Source: Clostridia bacterium
GTDB taxonomy: Bacteria; Bacillota; Clostridia; Christensenellales; Aristaeellaceae
DNA length: 64,000 nucleotides
Direction: 5' to 3'
NCBI GenBank assembly: GCA_017526525.1
Contig: JAFXRG010000053.1
Coordinates: 29,765-93,764, forward strand
Position numbers and translations under genes: made by a program
Part shown: piece by piece, positions 4,303 through 49,007 of the stretch
How the letters are laid out: each line of letters begins with the position of its first letter
How positions within the stretch are numbered: the stretch's first letter is position 1
The notes under the pieces: model-generated
What the model saw: the letters and a program-made list of their open reading frames with translations, nothing else
Databases searched by the model: none
Told to the model about the DNA's origin: nothing

Positions 4303-7300
4303 GTGAAAAAGCATATGAAAAGCATACGCGTCCGAATCATCGGCATCATCGTCCTGGTGGTTCTTTTCACCACCGGCCTGCTGTTCGTGGTCAGCTACCA
4401 GCGAACCCGGAGCAGCATGACCGTCCAGATGGAAAACAACTACAGCACGGTGGCCGAAAAATACGCCCAGGAGCTGACGGCGTGGATCAGCACCAACGCG
4501 ACGGTGGTGGATTCACTGGCAGCGGAAATCACGGTCAGCCGGATTTACGAAGAGGATAACGGGGTTTTTCACCGGTTCCTGGCGGAGCGCCGGGGACTGC
4601 TGGACCGGACAGGCGTCGTCTATGATTTCTATTTCACCTATCCGGACAACTCCATGGCCTGCGCCTCGGACTTTGTGCCGGACGGCACCGTGGATTACGC
4701 CCATGAAAGGGACTGGTTCACGGAGGCCGCCGCCACCGGTGAACTGTTCTATTCCACGCCCTACCGGGATTCGGACTCCGGAAAGCCGATTATCACCATT
4801 TCCCGGGGCATTTATGCGGAAAATGTGCTGCAGGGCGTTCTTGCCGCGGACATCTTTGTGGATGTGCTGGTGGATATCATCAGCGAAGCGGACGTGGCGC
4901 CGGACAGCTATGCCTTCCTGGTGGACCGGAACCTGGGCATGATCGTCCATCCCAACCAGGCCTACGCCTTCGAGGATACGCCCCGCAATGTGATGGATGT
5001 CCGGGACGCGCCGTATGCGGACGTGGTTTCGAAAATCCGCTCCGGCTCCACCGGCACGGTCTACCTGAAGGATTATGACGGCGTCACCCGCGGGGTGGTG
5101 GTCTCCCGGATGGCCAATACCGGCTGGTATGTGGGCATCGCCACCAGCCGGGAGGAACTGGTCCAGGATTACGGCTCCATGGCCCGCGGTTTCCTGATTG
5201 CCGGCATCTCCGTCCTGGTGCTCGGCAGCATTTTTGCGGTCCTGTTCACGTGGATCCTGGTAAAGGAAACCCGCCCGGAAGAGCTGGCCCGGAAGCTCCG
5301 GGAGAAGTTCCGGCGGCCCCAGAACGCCACGCGCCTTCCCGGAAAATTCCGGCGTATTGCCCCGATGGTGCTGATCTTCCTGCTGATGGTCGGCATGGTC
5401 CTGTATACCAGCCGGGCCATCACCAACGTGGCCACGGACAACATTCATGAGGTGGGCGAAGACCGGATCTCCGCCGCCGCCGCGGAACTGGAAAACTACC
5501 TGGGCACCGCGAAAAGCACCCTCTGGGTCACGGCGGATACCGTGGACCATATGCTCCGCACCGGCGCCTCCGTGGAGGAGATCGCCGCCTACATCATCGA
5601 GGAAACCAACCACCAGAAACAGCAGTTCGATATGAACATCACCGGCTTTTACGGCTACGTCCGGGGCGAATATATTGACGGGCTTTCCTGGGTGCCCCCG
5701 GAAAACTACGACCCCACCCGCCGGGACTGGTACCGGCAGGCCATTGCCGCGGGCGGCGAGGCCACCCTGATTGCCCCCTATGTGGACGCCCAGACAAACG
5801 CCCTGATCATTTCCATCTCCCGCATGCTGTCCGGCGGAACGGACGTGGTTTCCGTGGACGTGATGATGAATCATATCCAGGAGATTGTCTCCTCCCTGCA
5901 GATCAAGGGAAAGGGCTACGGTTTCATCGTGGATCGCAGCGGCATGCTGATCGCCCATCGGGACGAGGAAAGGCGCGGCAAATACCTGACGGAGGAAGAG
6001 GATAAGCTGGCGCTGTTCGACCAGATCCTGGAAACGGAAAACGGCTACGTCAAGCTCCGGGACGCCCCGGTGCAGAGCACGGCCTTCGTCCGTAAAATCA
6101 CCGACCAGTGGTATATGGTCATCATGATCGACGACCCCGAGCTCATGGCGGAGGTCTGGGAGCAGCTGGCCATCAACGTGGTCATCTGCTCGGTCATTTT
6201 CGGCCTGATCATCATCTTCTTCCTGATCGGCCACCGGACGGAAATCAATTATTCCCTGCGCATCGAAGCCCTCCGGGCGGAGGAGCAGAAGCAGGCTTAT
6301 GAGGCAAAAGCCCTGAAGCTGGAAAAGGAAGCCGCCGACCAGGCAAACCAGGCAAAAAGCGATTTCCTGGCCAGCATGTCCCATGAAATCCGCACCCCCA
6401 TCAACGCGGTGCTCGGCATGAACGAAATGATCCTGCGGGAAACCTATGCCCTCCAGGAGGAAAAGGATCCGGAGCGCCTGCGGGAGGCGGTCGCCGGCAT
6501 CCGTTCCTGCGCTGGGGATATCGGAAACGCCGGAAACAACCTGCTTTCCATCATTAACGACGTGCTGGACTTTTCCAAGATCGAGGCGGGAAAAACAGAG
6601 CTTTCCCCGATGGATTACAAGCTCAGCGCCCTCCTGAACGATGCCTGCAGCCTGATCATCTTCCGGGCCCGGAACAAAGGCCTGGAGTTCCGGACGGAGG
6701 TGGATCCCGCCATTCCGGACGGGCTTTACGGCGACGTGGTGCACGTGCGCCAGATCCTGACCAATTTACTGACCAACGCGGTGAAATATACGGACCGGGG
6801 CAGCGTCCTGCTTACCGTCCGCGCGGAGGAGCCGATCCGGAACGCCGGGGACCCCCTGACCCTGGTGATTTCTGTCCGGGATACCGGCATCGGCATCCGC
6901 CAGGAGGATATTGGCCGGCTCTTCGACCGGTTTGAGCGCCTGAACCTGGAGCACAACAGCACCGTGGAGGGCACCGGCCTCGGCCTGGCCATCACCCGGA
7001 AGCTGGTTTCCATGATGAACGGAACCATCTCGGTGGAAAGCACCTACGGCGAAGGTTCCGTCTTCACCGTCCGCATTCCCCAGCAGGTGCATTCCTGCGA
7101 GCCGGTGGGCTCCTTCAGCTCCAGGTATGAAGCCCGTCCGGCGGAAGAGAAAAAATACCGGGTTTCCTTCCGCGCTCCGGAGGCCCGGCTGCTGATCGTG
7201 GATGACACTAAAATGAACCTGACCGTGGCGGTGGGCCTGCTGCGGAAAACGGAGGTCCGGATCGATACGGCTGTCAGCGCCCGGGAAGCCCTGGAAAAGG

Positions 7301-41989: not shown

Positions 41990-42727
41990 ATGAAAAAACT
42001 GTTTGCTGTTGTTCTGGCCCTTGCCCTTTGCTGCCTGCTCCTTCCCTCCCTGGCGGAAAGCCCGGATCTCACCGGTACCTGGTACCTGAACCGCACCCAG
42101 ATCGAGGGAAAAAAAGTCTTCCTCGTTGAAAATGACTTCATCATGCTGGAGATCGCCGCGGACAACACCTTCACCATGTCCTCCTCCATGTATGCCGAAA
42201 CCAAATCCGGCACCGCGAAGGTGGAAAACGGCGTACTGACCCTCACCGCCGGCGAAGAAACCACGTCCTTCGTCATCGAAGGCGATGAACTCAAGTACGA
42301 CATCGGCACCCAGGTTCTTTACCTGTCCAGGACCCCCGGTGAAACCATGCCGCTGCCGGTTTTCGCCCCCGCCGAAAAGGCTGAGGACTTCAACGGCACC
42401 TGGCTTCCCGTTGCGCAGGTCGCTTACGGCTTCTATGTGGAGATGGACGAAGAAACCCGCGGCACCGTCGGCACGCTGACCATTGAAAACGGAAAAATCA
42501 CGGTCCAGACCGGCGCCGTCGAAGGCCTTTCTGTCGATCCCAGCGTTTATGAAGGCACCTTTAGCGACGGAATGCTGCTGGCCTCGGACAACACCCTGTT
42601 CCCCAGCGAAATGGGCCTCTCCCTGCGGGAAGACGGATCCCTCTTCTACGACGTTGCCCTGAAGATGTCCGAGGAGCTCACCATGGAGACCACTACCATT
42701 TTTGTCCGGGCGGAAGCCGAAAAGTAA
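41990..42727 (+). CDS. Secreted beta-rich protein with two GTW (lipocalin-like) repeats
   Basis: Signal peptide ...PSLA|ES; DLTGTWYL and DFNGTWL. Confidence 0.65.
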   Translation: MKKLFAVVLALALCCLLLPSLAESPDLTGTWYLNRTQIEGKKVFLVENDFIMLEIAADNTFTMSSSMYAETKSGTAKVENGVLTLTAGEETTSFVIEGDELKYDIGTQVLYLSRTPGETMPLPVFAPAEKAEDFNGTWLPVAQVAYGFYVEMDEETRGTVGTLTIENGKITVQTGAVEGLSVDPSVYEGTFSDGMLLASDNTLFPSEMGLSLREDGSLFYDVALKMSEELTMETTTIFVRAEAEK

Positions 42728-42739
42728 GCTTCAGCGCCT

Positions 42740-43285
42740 TCAAGTCCACTGAAGGATGTTGAGGATCATATGCATCACAGCGGGAACGGTTACCGTTCCC
42801 GTTTTTTTGCGCCCGGCTCCCAGCAGCAACCCCGCGGCAAAGGCGGCGGCCATCCGCGGAAGGCTGCCGTGCGCCGCGGCAAAAAGCAGCGCGCTGACCC
42901 AGATCGCCGCTCCCGGCCGGTCCTCCCGGTAAACCCGGTCGTAAATCAGTCCCCGGTACAGCGTTTCCTCCGCCAGCGGTCCCACCCCGCAGCGTGAAAG
43001 GAAAAGCCAGAGGGACGCGTCCCCTTCCGGCCTTCCGAAGCAGAGGCGCGCCAGCACTCCCGCCGCGGCTGCCGCCGCGGCCCCGAAAAGCACCGCTTTC
43101 CCGGGAAGCCGAAAAACCTCCCGACCCTTTTCCCGGGCGTACAGGGCCATAAGTCCTGCCGCCAGCCCCGTTTCCAGGCAGGCGAGCGCGGCTGCCGGCA
43201 ATCCTTTCCCTGCCAGGCGGAAAAGCATCCATCCCAGCGCCGCGGCAACGGCCTGTCCCCAGCGGATCAGCTCATTCCTTTTCAT
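42740..43285 (-). CDS. CPBP (CAAX/Abi) intramembrane glutamic protease
   Basis: PLAEETLYRG, FAAAH, HMILN; overlaps the upstream gene. Confidence 0.85.
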   Translation of the reverse strand: MKRNELIRWGQAVAAALGWMLFRLAGKGLPAAALACLETGLAAGLMALYAREKGREVFRLPGKAVLFGAAAAAAAGVLARLCFGRPEGDASLWLFLSRCGVGPLAEETLYRGLIYDRVYREDRPGAAIWVSALLFAAAHGSLPRMAAAFAAGLLLGAGRKKTGTVTVPAVMHMILNILQWT

Positions 43286-44522
43286 GGCCGTCCTCCGCCG
43301 CGCCCGTCAGCCGCTGCCGGACGTCCGTCAGGTAATCCGCAATGATCCGGATGGATTCCCCCGGAAAAGCCCAGGTTTCGGCGACGGCCTCCTTCCGGCC
43401 CTCGGCATAGGCCCGGGACTGCAGGCATTCCCGGATCATCTCCGGCAGCCGGTCCGCGTTTTCCGCCGTCATCTCCATGCCCACCTTCGGCAGGGCCCGG
43501 AAGGTCCACATTTCGTTGTTCAGCCACCCCGCGTCGTAGGGTTCAAAGTCAAAGTCCACGTCCGCGTAAATCACCGGCCGGTCAAACACCAGCGAAAAGT
43601 CAAAAATGACGCTGGAATAGTCGGAAATCAGCAGGTCCGTCCGGTACAGCACGTCAAAATTGTCGTTGTCAAAGTTCCATTCCAGCCGATCGTCCGCCGG
43701 AAACCGTTTCCGCAGCCGGTCTATCAGCTCCTTTTCGGAAACCAGGCTCTGGGGATGCGGCCGCAGGATCACCCGGTACCCGGTCTTCCGCAGGTTTTCA
43801 ATCATCGCTTCCCCGAACCGGTTGAAAATGCTGCTGGGGCCCCAGCTGGGGGCCAGCAGCACGGTGGTTTCGTGCTCCGGCGCCGGCCCCCGCTCCTCCA
43901 GCTTTTTCCGCAGGGCGTCCATGTGCGGCAGCCCGGCCATGACGCATTCCTTAGCCGGCAGCCCCCGCATTTTTTCCATCTCCCGGATTTCCCGAACCTG
44001 GTATTCCCCGCTCACCAGCACGGCGTCGTAGTAGTCCGTGCCGAACATCCGGTAGCAGGTCACCCCGTTGGCCGCGTGCAGCACGTGGACATACCACCGC
44101 ACCTCCCGGGACCGCTTCCACTGGTAAACGTCCAGCCCCGGCGTGCTGGAAAGCACCACGTCTGCCTGCAGCAGGTTCATCCGGGCGTAGGCCCGGTTTC
44201 CCTCCCCGATGAATTCCGTCCGGATATGTTCGGTTTTCACCTGCAGCATCGGGTCGTCCGGGGAGGCGGTCAGGTACAGTACGCTTTCCCCCCGCCGTTC
44301 CATCTCGTCGCACAGGGGCCTGAAAATCGTTTCATACCGCTTGCTGTCGGTAAAGAATACAAAGGGCGCCCGGCCGTCCTCCCGGCCCCGGCTCCCGCCC
44401 CGCCGCAGCAGGGTTTTCATTCTGACCCATCCGGTCCGGGCCGCGTAAACCGCCGCCCCCAGCACCCCGATCAGGATCGTGAAGAGCATGCTCCCCGTGC
44501 CGGGATCGATATAGAAATCCAT
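43272..44522 (-). CDS. CDP-glycerol glycerophosphotransferase family (TagB/TagF-like) with N-terminal YIDPGTGS-TM
   Basis: GLPHMD, LLAPSW, RPHP, DLLISDYSSVIFDF...RPVI. Confidence 0.85.
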   Translation of the reverse strand: MDFYIDPGTGSMLFTILIGVLGAAVYAARTGWVRMKTLLRRGGSRGREDGRAPFVFFTDSKRYETIFRPLCDEMERRGESVLYLTASPDDPMLQVKTEHIRTEFIGEGNRAYARMNLLQADVVLSSTPGLDVYQWKRSREVRWYVHVLHAANGVTCYRMFGTDYYDAVLVSGEYQVREIREMEKMRGLPAKECVMAGLPHMDALRKKLEERGPAPEHETTVLLAPSWGPSSIFNRFGEAMIENLRKTGYRVILRPHPQSLVSEKELIDRLRKRFPADDRLEWNFDNDNFDVLYRTDLLISDYSSVIFDFSLVFDRPVIYADVDFDFEPYDAGWLNNEMWTFRALPKVGMEMTAENADRLPEMIRECLQSRAYAEGRKEAVAETWAFPGESIRIIADYLTDVRQRLTGAAEDGHEKE

Positions 44523-44548
44523 CCTTCTCTCCTCCGTTTCCCGGCGTC

Positions 44549-47197
44549 TCAGGGCACCGCCCAGTTGCTCTCGTCAAAAATCCATTGTTTTTTCAGCGTC
44601 AGCCGGATGGGGTCCGAATACTGCACCCCGTGGTTTTCCGCAATCCGCCAGTCCGTCAGCATCACGTACTGCTCCGCCTCGTTCTTCGCCTCCGCGCTGA
44701 TCGCCTTGCCGGTAAAGGGATTCACCGGGTTGTCAATCAGCCCCCGCATGGCCTCCGTCGGCGTATCCGCGATGGTCATGAAATCCTGCCGCACAGTGAA
44801 TTCCCCGCTGCTGCCGAAATCCTTGATCATCATCAGCGCGTTGTAGGCCATAATCCCCTCGTAGGGCGCCAGCCCGTTCTCCCCTTCCTCCCGGCCGGTC
44901 AGCAGGTGGCTCAGCCCCAGTTCCCATCCGTGGTCGCTCACCAGGATGATGCGGGTGTTGTCCCACACGCCGTTTTCCCGCAGGAAATCAAACCATTGCC
45001 CCAGCAGCTTCAGCGCCGCCGTGTCGCTCTGGTAATGCTCCATCTGTTCAATGGTTTTCAGCTCCAGCCGCCCGCCCGCCTGGGAAGTCCGCACCCGGTG
45101 GGCCGCCTCGTATTCGGTGTTGTCCACCCGGTGGCGAGGTTCAAACTCCGGCTCCTGCAGCATGGTCACGTCGTGGGTGGCGGTGTTGCTCATCAGCAGG
45201 AAGGTCCCCTTGCCCCCGGCGCTTTCCCCGGCCCCGGCGGCCACCGCAAACTCCGGCAGGTGCTGCAGCACGGTGTAGGCCTTCATATACTCGTCCGAAA
45301 TCCCGGTGCTTTTCAGTTCGCTCTGCTCAAAAAACGCCGCCTCGTAGTCCACCGCCCGGGAGGCATCCTGGGCCTCCGCCTCGTTGTAGCGGCCCTCGTT
45401 GTACGCCGCCGGCTGCAGAATTACCGGGCACGCGCGGAAAACGCTGTAGCAGAAAAGATTCCGGAAAAGCGTCCGGTCCTTTTTCCGGATGGCTTCCTCT
45501 TCCTTTTCCACAAACGCCCCGTGGGAGTTGTACCGGTGAATGGAGGGATAGTCGTCATAAATGCTCAGGTCCGGAATCCAAAGATACCCCGCGTAGGGCG
45601 GATCGCACACCGTAACCTCCCAGCCGTTTTCGTCAAACAGCACCGGCATCACCTTCAGGGCCTCGTTCTGCTTCTCCGGCAGGGCCGCGTCCGTCCGCTT
45701 GTTCAGCTCAAAGGGCCGGTATTCGTATCCCCCGTAAAGGGACGGCGTACAGACGTTGGTGTTTTTCCCGAAGGCCAGGGTGTTGGGATAGTAGGTAAAG
45801 TTCCGGAACTGCTCCGCAATCTCCGGGTTCTCCTCAAAAATATAGGGAACAAACCCGCTGATGCACCGGTCCAGCATGATCACGCAAACGTTCTTCCCCG
45901 TCCGGGAAAGGGTCACCCGGGGCTTTGCCCGCTCCCGCTCCGCCAGGGTTTCCCGGGCCGCCGCTTCCAGCTTCACGGTTTCGCCGGCAATGCGCTGCAC
46001 GTTCATTCCGGACATCACCGCCAGCCCGATGCATCCGGCAATGCACAGGGCCGCCAGGATCTCCGGCTTCTTTTTCAGCAGCAGCACCACCAGCCCGGCC
46101 GCGGCCGCCAGCACCGCCAGGTTCAGCAGCACCTCCCCCGGCGCGGCCGCCGGGGCATGGTCATATTTCAGCATGGGGGAAAGGTTTCCGTATCCCTGCC
46201 CGAAAAACATATAATCCGTCACCGCCGCGGCGGAAAGCACCGCGATTCCGGCGGTCAGCCGCTTCCGGCCCTTCCGGGAAGCCAGCGCGTAAAAAACCTG
46301 CCCCCAGACCAGGAAGGTGCCGGCCGCCGTCAGCGCGGCCGCCCCCACGTACCGCAGCGGGGTCCGGAAATCGGTAATCTCCACAAACTCCCCGGGAGAG
46401 GCGTCCACAATCGCGCTGGGAATCAGAACCCCCAGCAGCACCGTCAGCAGCAGGCATCCGGCAAGGAAAACCGTCCGCCCGTGCCGGTCCGGGGTCTTCC
46501 CTGCCGCCTCCGGGGCCGGTTTCTTTTCCCTTTTCCTGGTCCAGAGGTTCCGCGCCAGCGAAAAAACGTTGTTCAGCGTCCAGTACAGCACCAGCCCGGA
46601 GGGCGATCTGTACAGCAGCACCAGGAAAACCGCCCCAATGCCGAACACCTGAATCCGGTTCCGCAGCGGCAGGCCCCGGGTATACACCGCCCCTGAGGCA
46701 AGGTTCACCGCCGTCATCAAAAGGGGCAGCAGGTTGATGGCCGTGCCGGAAATCACCAGCAGGCCGTCCGGCTTTCCCAGGTCGCCGATCGGCCCGAAGG
46801 CGGTTCCCTGCAACAGGCCCAGAGAGCTCAGGTAGCGGTACGCCGCCAGGAAAAAAGGAATCTCCAGCAGCAGGGACACGGATCCCTTCAGCACGTAATA
46901 GGGTTTGTAATGATTCTGCCGGTAGTAGGTCTGCAGGATCATGAAGCGCTCGTCGCCCCGGAAAGCCCGCCGGATTTTGTCAACGCCGGGCTTCAGCCGC
47001 CGGGCCTGTTCCCGCTCCCCTGCCTGCACGGCGTCCGCCCGCCGGTACAGGGGCGTCATCAGCAAATTGACGGCCAGGCTCAGCAGGGCAATGGAAATCC
47101 CCGGATTTCCGCTCAGCCGGAAAGCCAGGGCAAAAAGGGTGTCAAACAGCAGCTCCAGCGGTCCGGAAACCAGCCGGTACAAAATATCCCCGATCAT
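44549..47197 (-). CDS. YidC/Oxa1-like domain fused to extra TMs and an alkaline-phosphatase-superfamily (LtaS/sulfatase-like) domain
   Basis: N-terminal LLEIPFF, DLGKPD, PSGLVLYWTLNN; C-terminal VIMLDR, TH, DNTRIILVSDHG; start from RBS GGAGG and upstream TGgTATGAT. Confidence 0.8.
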   Translation of the reverse strand: MIGDILYRLVSGPLELLFDTLFALAFRLSGNPGISIALLSLAVNLLMTPLYRRADAVQAGEREQARRLKPGVDKIRRAFRGDERFMILQTYYRQNHYKPYYVLKGSVSLLLEIPFFLAAYRYLSSLGLLQGTAFGPIGDLGKPDGLLVISGTAINLLPLLMTAVNLASGAVYTRGLPLRNRIQVFGIGAVFLVLLYRSPSGLVLYWTLNNVFSLARNLWTRKREKKPAPEAAGKTPDRHGRTVFLAGCLLLTVLLGVLIPSAIVDASPGEFVEITDFRTPLRYVGAAALTAAGTFLVWGQVFYALASRKGRKRLTAGIAVLSAAAVTDYMFFGQGYGNLSPMLKYDHAPAAAPGEVLLNLAVLAAAAGLVVLLLKKKPEILAALCIAGCIGLAVMSGMNVQRIAGETVKLEAAARETLAERERAKPRVTLSRTGKNVCVIMLDRCISGFVPYIFEENPEIAEQFRNFTYYPNTLAFGKNTNVCTPSLYGGYEYRPFELNKRTDAALPEKQNEALKVMPVLFDENGWEVTVCDPPYAGYLWIPDLSIYDDYPSIHRYNSHGAFVEKEEEAIRKKDRTLFRNLFCYSVFRACPVILQPAAYNEGRYNEAEAQDASRAVDYEAAFFEQSELKSTGISDEYMKAYTVLQHLPEFAVAAGAGESAGGKGTFLLMSNTATHDVTMLQEPEFEPRHRVDNTEYEAAHRVRTSQAGGRLELKTIEQMEHYQSDTAALKLLGQWFDFLRENGVWDNTRIILVSDHGWELGLSHLLTGREEGENGLAPYEGIMAYNALMMIKDFGSSGEFTVRQDFMTIADTPTEAMRGLIDNPVNPFTGKAISAEAKNEAEQYVMLTDWRIAENHGVQYSDPIRLTLKKQWIFDESNWAVP

Positions 47198-47420
47198 CCC
47201 GTTCCGCCTCCCCTTCCTGATTCTTCCGGCCTTGCGCGCCTTCCTGAAATCATACCACATTTTCTTTTCATTCTTCAATCTTTCTTAAAGCAATCCGCCC
47301 TATGATCATCCTGTCAGCAGGGAACGGTGCACATTTCCCCCTGGCAAACCTGTGAAACCGAATGATTTCTTTCCCGGGGAAAACCGGGGAAATGACAAAG
47401 AAGAAAGAAGGTTATGCAAA

Positions 47421-49007
47421 ATGAAAAAATGGAGCAAAATCCTCGCGCTCGGATTGTGTGTCAGCCTGATCGGAACCGCCGCCCTGGCGGAAGACACCGC
47501 CGCGGCAACCGGATCCGATACAGCCCAGGCCCAGCAAATGCAGCCCCCGGCGATGCCCGACGGCCAGCAACCTCCCGCCATGCCCGACGGCCAGCAGCCT
47601 CCCGCCATGCCCGACGGCCAGCAACCCCCGGCCATGCCGGACGGCCAGCAGCCTCCGGCCATGCCCGACGGTCAGCAGCCTCCCGCTATGCCGGACGGCC
47701 AGCAGCCTCCCGCCATGCCCGACGGCCAGCAGCCTCCCGCCATGCCCGACGGCCAGCAGCCTCCCGCCATGCCCGACGGCCAGCAACCTCCGGCCATGCC
47801 GGACGGCCAGCAGCCTCCGGCCATGCCCGACGGCCAGCAGCCTTCCGCCATGCCGGACGGCCAGCAGCCCCCGGCAAAGCCGGACGGCCAGGGAGGCCCC
47901 GGCGGCATGGGCGGCCCAGGCGGATCCGGCGCTCCCACGGAATACGCAGCCGCCAATACCGTCACCGAAAGCAGCACCGGCGCTTCCTATGCCTCGGAAC
48001 AGGACAGTGAAAATGCCGTCCTGGTCTCCGGGGAAACGGTCACCCTCAGCGGCGCCACCGTCACCAAAACCGGCTCTGCCGACGGCGACAGCGCAGATTT
48101 CTACGGCATCAACGCTGCGGTACTGGCCGTCAACGGCTCCTCGCTGACCCTGGAAGGCGCCGAAATTACCTCGGACGGCGCCCATGCCAACGGCGTCTTC
48201 AGCTGCGGCACCGGCACCGCCGTCAGCGTGTCCGATACAACCATCACCACCACCGGCAACTGCTCCGGCGGCCTGATGACCACCGGCGGTGCAGCCCTGA
48301 ACGCCTCCAACGTCACCGTATCCACCTCCGGCAATTCCTCCGCCGCCATCCGTTCCGACCGGGGCGGCGGAACGGTCACCGTCAGTGGCGGCACCTATGA
48401 CACCGCTGGCGTCGGCTCCCCCGCCATCTATTCCACCGCGGACATCACCGTCTCGGATGCCGTGCTCAGCGCCTCCGCCTCGGAAGCGGTGGTGATTGAA
48501 GGCGGCAACAGCGTCACCCTCCGCAATGTGGAAATCACCGGCAGCAACACGAAGCTCAACGGCCAGTCCACCGTGAACACCAATGTGCTGATCTATCAGT
48601 CCATGTCCGGGGACGCCAGCGAAGGCGCGTCCTTCTTCACCATGACCGGCGGCTCCATGACCGCCCTCACCGGCGCCATGTTCCATGTGACCAATACCGC
48701 CACCACCATCACCCTGGAAAATGTGGACTTCACCTGTGCCGCTGACAGCACCGTTTTCCTGGATGCCTCCGCGGATTCCTGGGGCCGCTCCGGCGCCAAC
48801 GGCGGCAGCGTCACCCTGAACCTGAAAAACCAGGACATCACCGGCGCCATCCTCTGCGACAGCGTGTCCTCCGTGTCGGTCTCCCTGGATGAAAACTCCT
48901 CCTGGACCCTCACCGGTGACAGCTCCGTGTCCGCCTTCACCGGCGACCTGGCAAACGTCAACCTGAACGGTTATACCCTGTATATCAACGGCGAGGCCGT
49001 AAAATAA
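47421..49007 (+). CDS. Secreted protein with Pro/Gln tandem repeats and a Ser/Thr/Gly-rich predicted beta-helix domain
   Basis: Signal peptide ...AALA|ED; (QQPPAMPDG)x13; AIRSDRGGG, SPAIYST, YQSMSGDA. Confidence 0.75.
   Translation: MKKWSKILALGLCVSLIGTAALAEDTAAATGSDTAQAQQMQPPAMPDGQQPPAMPDGQQPPAMPDGQQPPAMPDGQQPPAMPDGQQPPAMPDGQQPPAMPDGQQPPAMPDGQQPPAMPDGQQPPAMPDGQQPPAMPDGQQPSAMPDGQQPPAKPDGQGGPGGMGGPGGSGAPTEYAAANTVTESSTGASYASEQDSENAVLVSGETVTLSGATVTKTGSADGDSADFYGINAAVLAVNGSSLTLEGAEITSDGAHANGVFSCGTGTAVSVSDTTITTTGNCSGGLMTTGGAALNASNVTVSTSGNSSAAIRSDRGGGTVTVSGGTYDTAGVGSPAIYSTADITVSDAVLSASASEAVVIEGGNSVTLRNVEITGSNTKLNGQSTVNTNVLIYQSMSGDASEGASFFTMTGGSMTALTGAMFHVTNTATTITLENVDFTCAADSTVFLDASADSWGRSGANGGSVTLNLKNQDITGAILCDSVSSVSVSLDENSSWTLTGDSSVSAFTGDLANVNLNGYTLYINGEAVK
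47538..47888 (+). repeat. Coding tandem repeat, 13 x 27 bp
   Basis: CAGCAGCCTCCCGCCATGCCCGACGGC-type units, 351 bp, with mainly synonymous variation. Confidence 0.95.

Follow-up and report, generated by a model that had tools for sequence, protein, structure and literature searches.

This report concerns a cluster of three genes from a Clostridia bacterium (family Aristaeellaceae) and the protein system to which it belongs. The cluster lies in a 64,000-nucleotide stretch of contig JAFXRG010000053.1, called the window, whose source assembly is 64% complete. The genes are tightly packed on the minus strand: gene 1 (44549-47197), coding for 882 amino acids (aa) from an ATG at 47197, gene 2 (43272-44522; 416 aa) and gene 3 (42740-43285; 181 aa). 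An earlier note on this DNA had read them as an envelope-polymer pathway made of a YidC-transferase fusion, a TagF-like enzyme and a CPBP protease; the three reading frames, the gap of 26 base pairs (bp), the overlap of 14 bp and every sequence motif it named were found as described. Genes 1 and 2 carry four parts, namely a tyrosine (Tyr) peptide, a TagF-like enzyme, a YidC-fold domain and a transferase-type ectodomain, and these form a real, conserved and undescribed envelope-modification system, below called the module. No description of it was found in the literature searched (full text, mainly open access, mostly judged from listings).

The ATGs of genes 1 and 2 are preceded by ribosome sites of GGAGG type. 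Full-range homologues of the YidC-transferase fusion fall into 3067 clusters (7999 candidates scored), and contigs of run X10 (records 10 and 12) span the junctions between genes 3 and 2 and between genes 2 and 1; the fusion is therefore not an assembly artefact. Its distribution is patchy, with two occurrences among 151 genomes of the window's family. Organisms named for homologues include Butyrivibrio sp. X503, Oribacterium sp. and Aristaeella hokkaidonensis. Contigs from RNA libraries cover the locus, a coverage that cannot show transcription, and the single promoter-like site (47249-47278) is no better than chance.

Architecture of gene 1

Residues 1-222 of gene 1 (46532-47197, minus strand) form a YidC/Oxa1-fold core with coiled hairpin. 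Pfam family 60KD_IMP covers residues 33-221 with 67.5 bits (cut-off 35), and the AlphaFold model of gene 1, built from 44 sequences with a mean predicted local distance difference test score (pLDDT) of 87.6, matches EptA, MCR-1, PbgA, LtaP/LtaS and E. coli YidC in Foldseek. The last of these (6al2) superposes with a root mean square deviation (rmsd) of 3.7 over 217 columns, and the YidC fold that had been recognized by eye is thereby confirmed; the TIGR03592 score, 66.5, lies below the cut-off of 84.3. In its fold, its coiled hairpin and the motifs P-D, P-G-L and YW, gene 1 agrees with the YidC/Oxa1/SpoIIIJ proteins (E. coli 6al2/3wvf, B. halodurans YidC2 3wo6). Unlike them, it is a second copy located outside the rnpA-jag region, belongs to a separate clade of patchy occurrence whose members are fused to envelope enzymes, and has Asn in place of the Arg or Lys of the groove. 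The housekeeping yidC is a separate gene of 359 aa on contig C30, in the order rpmH-rnpA-yidD-yidC-jag, so the fusion is not the only YidC of this genome.

The groove residue R366 of E. coli YidC corresponds to Asn44 of gene 1. At this position 38 of 42 module rows have Asn and none has Arg or Lys, whereas 30 canonical YidC rows have Lys or Arg in 22 cases and a gap in seven; in the alignment of full-length fusions, Asn is retained in 91 of 93 rows. Further polar residues specific to the module are Ser40, Gln58, Thr162, Asn165 and Asn209. In a quick tree of the 42 module and 30 canonical rows, the module domains form a branch of their own (Shimodaira-Hasegawa-like approximate likelihood ratio test, SH-aLRT, 100). 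A second family, in which YidC is fused to TagF, retains the groove Lys and forms a third branch. In both quick trees long branches meet and the canonical outgroup comes from one phylum only; a double recruitment of YidC is possible from these sequences, not established. Separate clade and separate canonical yidC together support the view of this YidC fold as a second, specialized copy. PMC8920935 states that the groove Arg keeps the YidC groove hydrated and that S. mutans YidC2 is inactivated by loss of this Arg when Trp sits above it. Gene 1 has the corresponding Trp and has lost the Arg, which makes its ordinary insertase activity doubtful; judged from sequence, the additional polar residues may offset the loss.

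The YidC core is followed by a membrane helix bundle (residues 238-423; 45929-46486, minus strand), whose helices are placed in the model like the EptA/PbgA-type anchor, and by an ectodomain of the alkaline-phosphatase superfamily (residues 433-882; 44552-45901, minus strand). PbgA 6xlp aligns over residues 234-882 (rmsd 13.4), and the modelled ectodomain matches the alkaline-phosphatase core with Z 19-21 and rmsd 3.5-4.4. Its predicted active site consists of Asp443, Thr480 as predicted nucleophile, assigned by its position in the model and not by direct alignment, His675 and Asp755-His756. The first three are present in 93 of 93 rows and the Asp-His pair in 91, the other two having gaps; all are also invariant across 12 divergent rows of 15-45% identity. 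A profile of these 12 rows finds the LtaS ectodomain 2w5q as its best PDB match (E 1.2e-10), with His and Asp-His aligned. Foldseek, superposition of the core and the intact Asp/Thr/His/Asp-His site thus uphold the assignment to this superfamily. Gene 1 shares helix bundle and active-site residues with LtaS, EptA, MCR-1 and PbgA (YejM), but it is only 8-15% identical to them, and no LtaS or EptA family model of NCBIfam matched gene 1 or the 12 relatives. The Pfam Sulfatase match is weak (19.4 bits, below cut-off). Unlike these enzymes, gene 1 has a TagF-like enzyme and a Tyr peptide as partners, and bulk phospholipid is presumably not its donor.

Tandem paralogues of the YidC-transferase gene, two to four in number, occur in seven loci (L017, L024, L049, L057, L065, L073 and L080) and share one TagF-like gene, none being seen in L073. 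This suggests that one loader may serve several acceptors there.

The Tyr peptide and its partners

The larger part of gene 2 is a GT-B domain of TagF fold. It matches Pfam Glyphos_transf (PF04464) with 60.2 bits, over the cut-off, its model finds TagF 3l7k (E 4e-13, Foldseek), with TagF and TarL as nearest folds, and its invariant His149 and His256 coincide with the motifs TWHG and HP when compared with a family member that scores highly. Fold and both histidines are thus common to gene 2 and the TagF/TarL/Cps3D enzymes. Unlike those, gene 2 starts with a Tyr peptide and a membrane helix, scores only 20-26 bits with the NCBIfam TarF/TarL models (cut-offs 550-1000), and belongs to a module whose neighbours make CDP-choline or phosphonate donors.

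The N-terminus of gene 2 consists of a leader of three residues (MDF), the motif YIDPGTGS (residues 4-11; 44490-44513, minus strand), a helix (residues 10-28) and a basic tail; we propose it as a carrier. Among 65 neighbouring TagF-like reading frames, picked via the fusion gene and not via the motif, two lack the N-terminus, and the motif is identical in all 63 intact ones. By sequence, such conservation appears to go far beyond the needs of a membrane anchor. Motif plus helix were found in 107 of the 150 best distant representatives, the others being fragments or without the motif; the pattern used was of xDPxxG type with the first residue left free, and all 107 carry Tyr there. Sorted by a simple rule, 68 of them show a signal-peptide-like leader whose last residue immediately precedes Tyr; the leader is short in 35 and of another type in four. 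This position of the signal-peptide-like leader predicts that Tyr of the mature protein faces outward, with the TagF domain on the inside. In 54 of the 63 intact neighbours the last residue of the short leader is Leu or Phe, so this leader is unlike a signal-peptidase site.

Across loci, peptide, TagF, YidC and transferase are joined in five different ways. In the window, the peptide is fused to TagF and YidC to the transferase. Locus L102 has peptide-TagF, a stand-alone YidC and two genes with Sulfatase domain, accompanied by pepM, ppd and a cytidylyltransferase gene. All four parts are separate in L164 and L172, where a free peptide lies beside a soluble TagF and a stand-alone YidC. Proteins P0270 and P0283 unite peptide, TagF and a transferase-like part in one chain; this last part was judged by motifs, as it has no Pfam match and barely matches the profile of gene 1. 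In L246 the peptide is fused to the transferase. In G102, a 99% complete genome of the same genus, a free microprotein adjoins a gene of 635 aa in which YidC is fused to TagF (L215:706-2613).

Further members of this YidC-TagF family lie in L243-L250; their products, about 630-710 aa long, carry the database name "membrane protein insertase YidC", and such genes occur in 7 of 400 genomes of the class that were scored. With a pattern that required Tyr, a Y[IV]DP peptide was found on the same strand in all eight YidC-TagF loci including that of G102, free in seven and fused to the transferase in one; a transferase is adjacent in five of the eight and pepM/ppd in three. The transferase of G102 is located away from this pair, lacks the YidC core (scoring 43 bits where the median is 385) and has kept its active site. 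As YidC-TagF and microprotein are present there while the transferase has no YidC core, the YidC domain tracks peptide and loader more than transferase. Judged by these sequences, the Tyr peptide is a mobile module.

Free peptides are also found in a rather different setting. A 71-aa gene between nodL and noeA (L095:6941-7156; NZ_CP088011.1, Rhizobium sp. T136) codes for leader, YLDPGTGSM and helix. The protein matches 62 plasmid records, 57 of them from Sinorhizobium, many unannotated under the match; neighbours were checked for L095 and L098 only. A second free peptide, unannotated, occurs in L098, where its neighbours are a NoeA-like gene and a transferase that is related to gene 1 (E 1.7e-12, Z=1000). 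The rhizobial nodL-noeA-noeB locus, which we group with the Legionella Lani_1193-1195 cluster among the nearest known systems, shares the peptide with the module as a gene between nodL and noeA, and rhizobial NoeB has Thr, His and Asp-His in the same order as gene 1, in a weak match (hhalign probability 0.8%, E 0.068). Unlike the window module, this locus has neither YidC nor TagF, and its putative loader, NoeA, is described in PMC9758233 as a kinase-methyltransferase. Of the 816 neighbourhoods surveyed there, 65% contain a small conserved gene next to it; in the supplement this neighbour is about 65 aa long with weak signal-peptide scores.

Searches for such short proteins have their limits. 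Short relatives of the peptide were mostly contig-end fragments (15 of 120 examined), and ESM Atlas returned nothing for the peptide. A one-protein search missed the G102 microprotein, clearly present in L215, so reported absences of the peptide are unreliable. Most of 118 weak plasmid matches are probably chance: of three inspected, one was a metallopeptidase gene and one an in-frame stretch that lacks the motif, so neither was the peptide, and the third led to the gene between nodL and noeA.

Gene neighbourhoods and donor genes

A genome scan gave 390 confirmed relatives, of which the best 79 were kept as loci, and the best 80 of 230 metagenome loci served as a second set; the 79 loci are related to each other and their counts not independent. 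The linkage between fusion and TagF-like enzyme is strong. A full TagF-like gene lies within 8 kilobases (kb) of the fusion in 64 of 79 loci (50 of the 59 with room on both sides), and in seven of nine genomes with an orphan fusion it is located elsewhere; the failure to find a match in the other two, which are small assemblies, is uninformative. In the metagenome set, a YidC fusion is present in 32 of 39 loci of at least 8 kb.

The remaining neighbours point to donor synthesis. Local hidden Markov models identified licA-like genes in 31, licC-like genes in 37 and licB-like genes in 22 of the 79 loci; family names come from Pfam on representatives, that of licC from motif and context. With a single query for each, pepM was detected in 3 of 79 genome and 8 of 80 metagenome loci, and licD in none and two, respectively. 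According to PMC10434233, LicD and PptA are the known phosphocholine transferases. The module thus resembles the Lic-1 pathway (LicABCD) in having licA-, licB- and licC-like genes commonly beside it; unlike in Lic-1, LicD is rare or not found, and the module seems to stand in its place. The window's genome itself has an unlinked licD. It also has an unlinked gene joining a cytidylyltransferase to a PEP-mutase (C52:5192-6490), no Ppd being found in the 64%-complete assembly; reading frames labelled by eye as phage-like terminase and portal-type lie about 5 kb from it. In L056 a gene for the ethanolamine-utilization protein EutH (4973-6067) adjoins the module, a hint that some loci may use ethanolamine instead of choline.

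A stand-alone cytidylyltransferase of TagD size was found, with a single weak query, in one of 159 loci (in the metagenome set), other adjacent frames (Pfam on 50 of 75) contained no recurrent teichoic-acid gene, and no tagA, tagO, tagGH or LCP cluster recurred among the neighbours scanned. The only recurrent transporter is the LicB-like EamA protein (22 of 79 loci). From the earlier envelope-polymer reading, a role in envelope modification fits, while a polymer made from CDP-glycerol or CDP-ribitol is not supported, the neighbours being of lic and pepM type.

Gene 3, predicted earlier to be a CPBP protease acting in the pathway, is Rce1-like by Pfam (70.3 bits) and has intact EExxxR (106), FxxxH (135) and HxxxN (172) motifs. 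In 16 of 79 loci a CPBP gene is found no more than 400 bp away; one of these is on the opposite strand, and three share an open frame with the TagF-like gene. Since the window's genome has only two CPBP genes, this adjacency is above chance, but it is optional, and CPBP is an accessory rather than a core part of the module. As the short leader is unlike a signal-peptidase site, CPBP may cleave it. MroQ is reported to remove a leader, and LnsB to work without its catalytic motifs. An exclusive tie of CPBP to short leaders was considered and dropped, 0/15 versus 3/58 being too thin to count. CPBP and Tyr-peptide-TagF share one open frame in L026:6395-7993, L045:5408-7123, L083:6265-7998 and L059:2-1408; these frames have no Met just before the Tyr motif.

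Possible mechanism and its alternatives

Sequences and models show the folds, the conservation of catalytic residues and of the Tyr motif, the linkage of the genes and the varied ways in which they are fused. These observations lead us to a reading to which we give an even chance: an insertase-driven shuttle, in which TagF loads a CDP-activated head group on the peptide Tyr, YidC moves it outward and the ectodomain transfers it. We infer here the roles of Tyr as acceptor and YidC as mover, the single use or reuse of the peptide, the head group and the final acceptor. The TagF domain would move the head group from a CDP or CMP donor to Tyr while the peptide tail is reachable from the cytoplasm. 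The group would probably be of phosphocholine/ethanolamine type or an aminoalkylphosphonate; loading of such a CDP- or phosphonate-type group is likely, supported by donor-making neighbours without LicD. The YidC groove would then pass the loaded tail to the outer face, where the LtaS/EptA-type ectodomain would take the group on Thr480 and hand it on to a glycan or protein of the cell surface. Where the peptide is fused to large enzymes, reuse is favoured; free microproteins could be single-use. Housekeeping YidC could serve where there is no private copy. CPBP would not be needed at most loci; where present, it would probably trim the short leader or turn over spent carrier.

This arrangement resembles the Dlt (DltB-DltX-DltD) and PatAB systems, in which, according to PMC12148441, an invariant Tyr on a microprotein (DltX) or fused motif (PatA) shuttles acyl groups. 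Inside loader, small membrane peptide with invariant Tyr, free or fused, and outside enzyme with hydroxyl nucleophile would be common to all of them (PMC12148441). The module differs from Dlt/PatAB in the N-terminal position of the motif (Y-[ILV]-D-P), in a predicted cargo of phospho or phosphono type, in a loader that resembles TagF in fold or else NoeA, in the alkaline-phosphatase fold of the outer enzyme and in a membrane part of YidC fold. The pair of MBOAT and SGNH proteins with a C-terminal FxYxxF motif has no counterpart here, as neither domain was found in module proteins or neighbours scanned. The likeness to Dlt and Pat would be one of workings at most, no link in sequence or fold having been found.

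Several points weigh against the Tyr-peptide shuttle. To our knowledge, TagF-family enzymes modify hydroxyls of sugars and polyols, not Tyr, and reuse of the carrier needs a back-translocation that is not known for YidC. Contact of the peptide with gene 1 or the TagF domain is a prediction only. In the window's genome (64% complete) no licA/choline kinase, licB, licC or ppd was found. YidC-type genes also adjoin leader-bearing peptides, in 10 of 15 loci. Moreover, as the nodL-noeA-noeB locus and L098 have the peptide and no nearby YidC-like gene, a dedicated YidC is not always needed with the peptide. In PMC9758233, SignalP 6 mostly predicts no signal peptide for the small neighbour of the Legionella NoeA homologue (five rows, which may not be this peptide).

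The best surviving alternative, doubtful in our view, is close to the earlier note: the TagF-like enzyme would make a lipid-linked head group in the inner leaflet, the YidC groove would scramble it and the ectodomain would use it as EptA and LtaS use phospholipids, the peptide being no more than a docking tag that keeps the complex together. The nearest characterized relatives of the ectodomain by structure and profile are EptA, LtaS and the like, and LtaS/EptA-type enzymes use lipid donors. The groove of gene 1, though without Arg, is still polar. Lipid scrambling in vitro by YidC and further members of the Oxa1 group is described in 10.1101/2023.09.01.555937. Such a route leaves unexplained the invariant Tyr peptide and its occurrence as a free gene, the leader that ends exactly before the Tyr, and the presence of the same peptide with the NoeA kinase-methyltransferase and no TagF; besides, no CDP-alcohol phosphatidyltransferase was among the recurrent neighbours scanned.

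It is unlikely that YidC serves assembly only. As an insertase or chaperone of the module's own, it would then place the N-out helix of the peptide in the membrane, or fold the transferase, once and stay out of the catalytic cycle, while the head group crosses otherwise and reaches Tyr or Thr only outside. Procoat is built from leader, short loop and helix, and Pf3 coat from short tail and helix; the peptide, with leader or short tail plus helix, resembles them, and peptide systems without local YidC exist. Procoat and Pf3 coat are named as YidC substrates in PMC8920935. A housekeeping YidC is, however, present, invariant residues set the YidC of the module apart from 30 canonical copies, and a second family has YidC fused to the cytoplasmic TagF domain; nor is there another recurrent transporter that could carry the group, except the EamA protein in 22 of 79 loci.

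We consider it quite improbable that the ectodomain is a hydrolase removing or recycling head groups, or that the modified Tyr peptide is itself a surface decoration or signal. Choline sulfatases and hydrolases of phosphonate monoesters do lead the VIA matches, tied with the transferases to about 2 Z units, and the sole NCBIfam match of the ectodomain is a weak one to PehA, a short match to which was also the only one among plasmid records. The nucleophile is Thr in LtaS/EptA and Cys or Ser in sulfatases; here its position holds Thr in 93 of 93 rows, the best PDB profile match is LtaS, the neighbours are biosynthetic and several kinds of fusion join the peptide to enzymes. Least probable of all is a non-canonical teichoic-acid polymer, made from CDP-glycerol or CDP-ribitol by the TagF-like enzyme and exported or attached by gene 1, for which TagF/TarL as closest folds and the Glyphos_transf score speak, and against which stand the TarF/TarL scores far below cut-off and the teichoic-acid genes missing, as described above, from the neighbours.

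If the Tyr-peptide shuttle is extended to all of these systems, YidC would have been repurposed, possibly twice, as translocase of a reusable Tyr-peptide arm carrying phosphocholine, phosphonate or other phospho groups from nucleotide donors in the cytoplasm to the surface of the cell with neither lipid carrier nor LicD, and the peptide would be the overlooked fourth gene of nodL-noeA-noeB. We hold this wider reading tentatively, at somewhat less than even chances. NoeA would then be the loader and NoeB the outer transferase of a surface or secreted-glycan modification, and the noeA/noeB host-range genes, known since 1995, would become directly testable via one unannotated gene of 71 codons. 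A phospho-Tyr peptide moved by an insertase fold would present a new way of transferring activated groups over the membrane and a new task for YidC, and many gut and rumen anaerobes would have a LicD-independent route to surface phosphocholine or phosphonate, masked today by the label "membrane protein insertase YidC". Under the alternative readings, too, the module would contain a dedicated YidC clade in envelope decoration, such as was not found in the literature searched.

The surroundings of the three genes contain a few further features. Divergent from gene 1 (47352-49007, plus strand) lies a gene for a secreted-looking protein of 529-551 aa without Pfam or NCBIfam match, containing a 27-bp repeat in 13 copies (47540-47891; unit QQPPAMPDG). 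On the other side, a lipocalin-like protein with signal peptide is encoded on the plus strand (41990-42727), convergent with gene 3 and 12 bp apart from it, and a hairpin of 11 pairs with a T run on the plus strand is situated inside the end of gene 3 (42779-42803).

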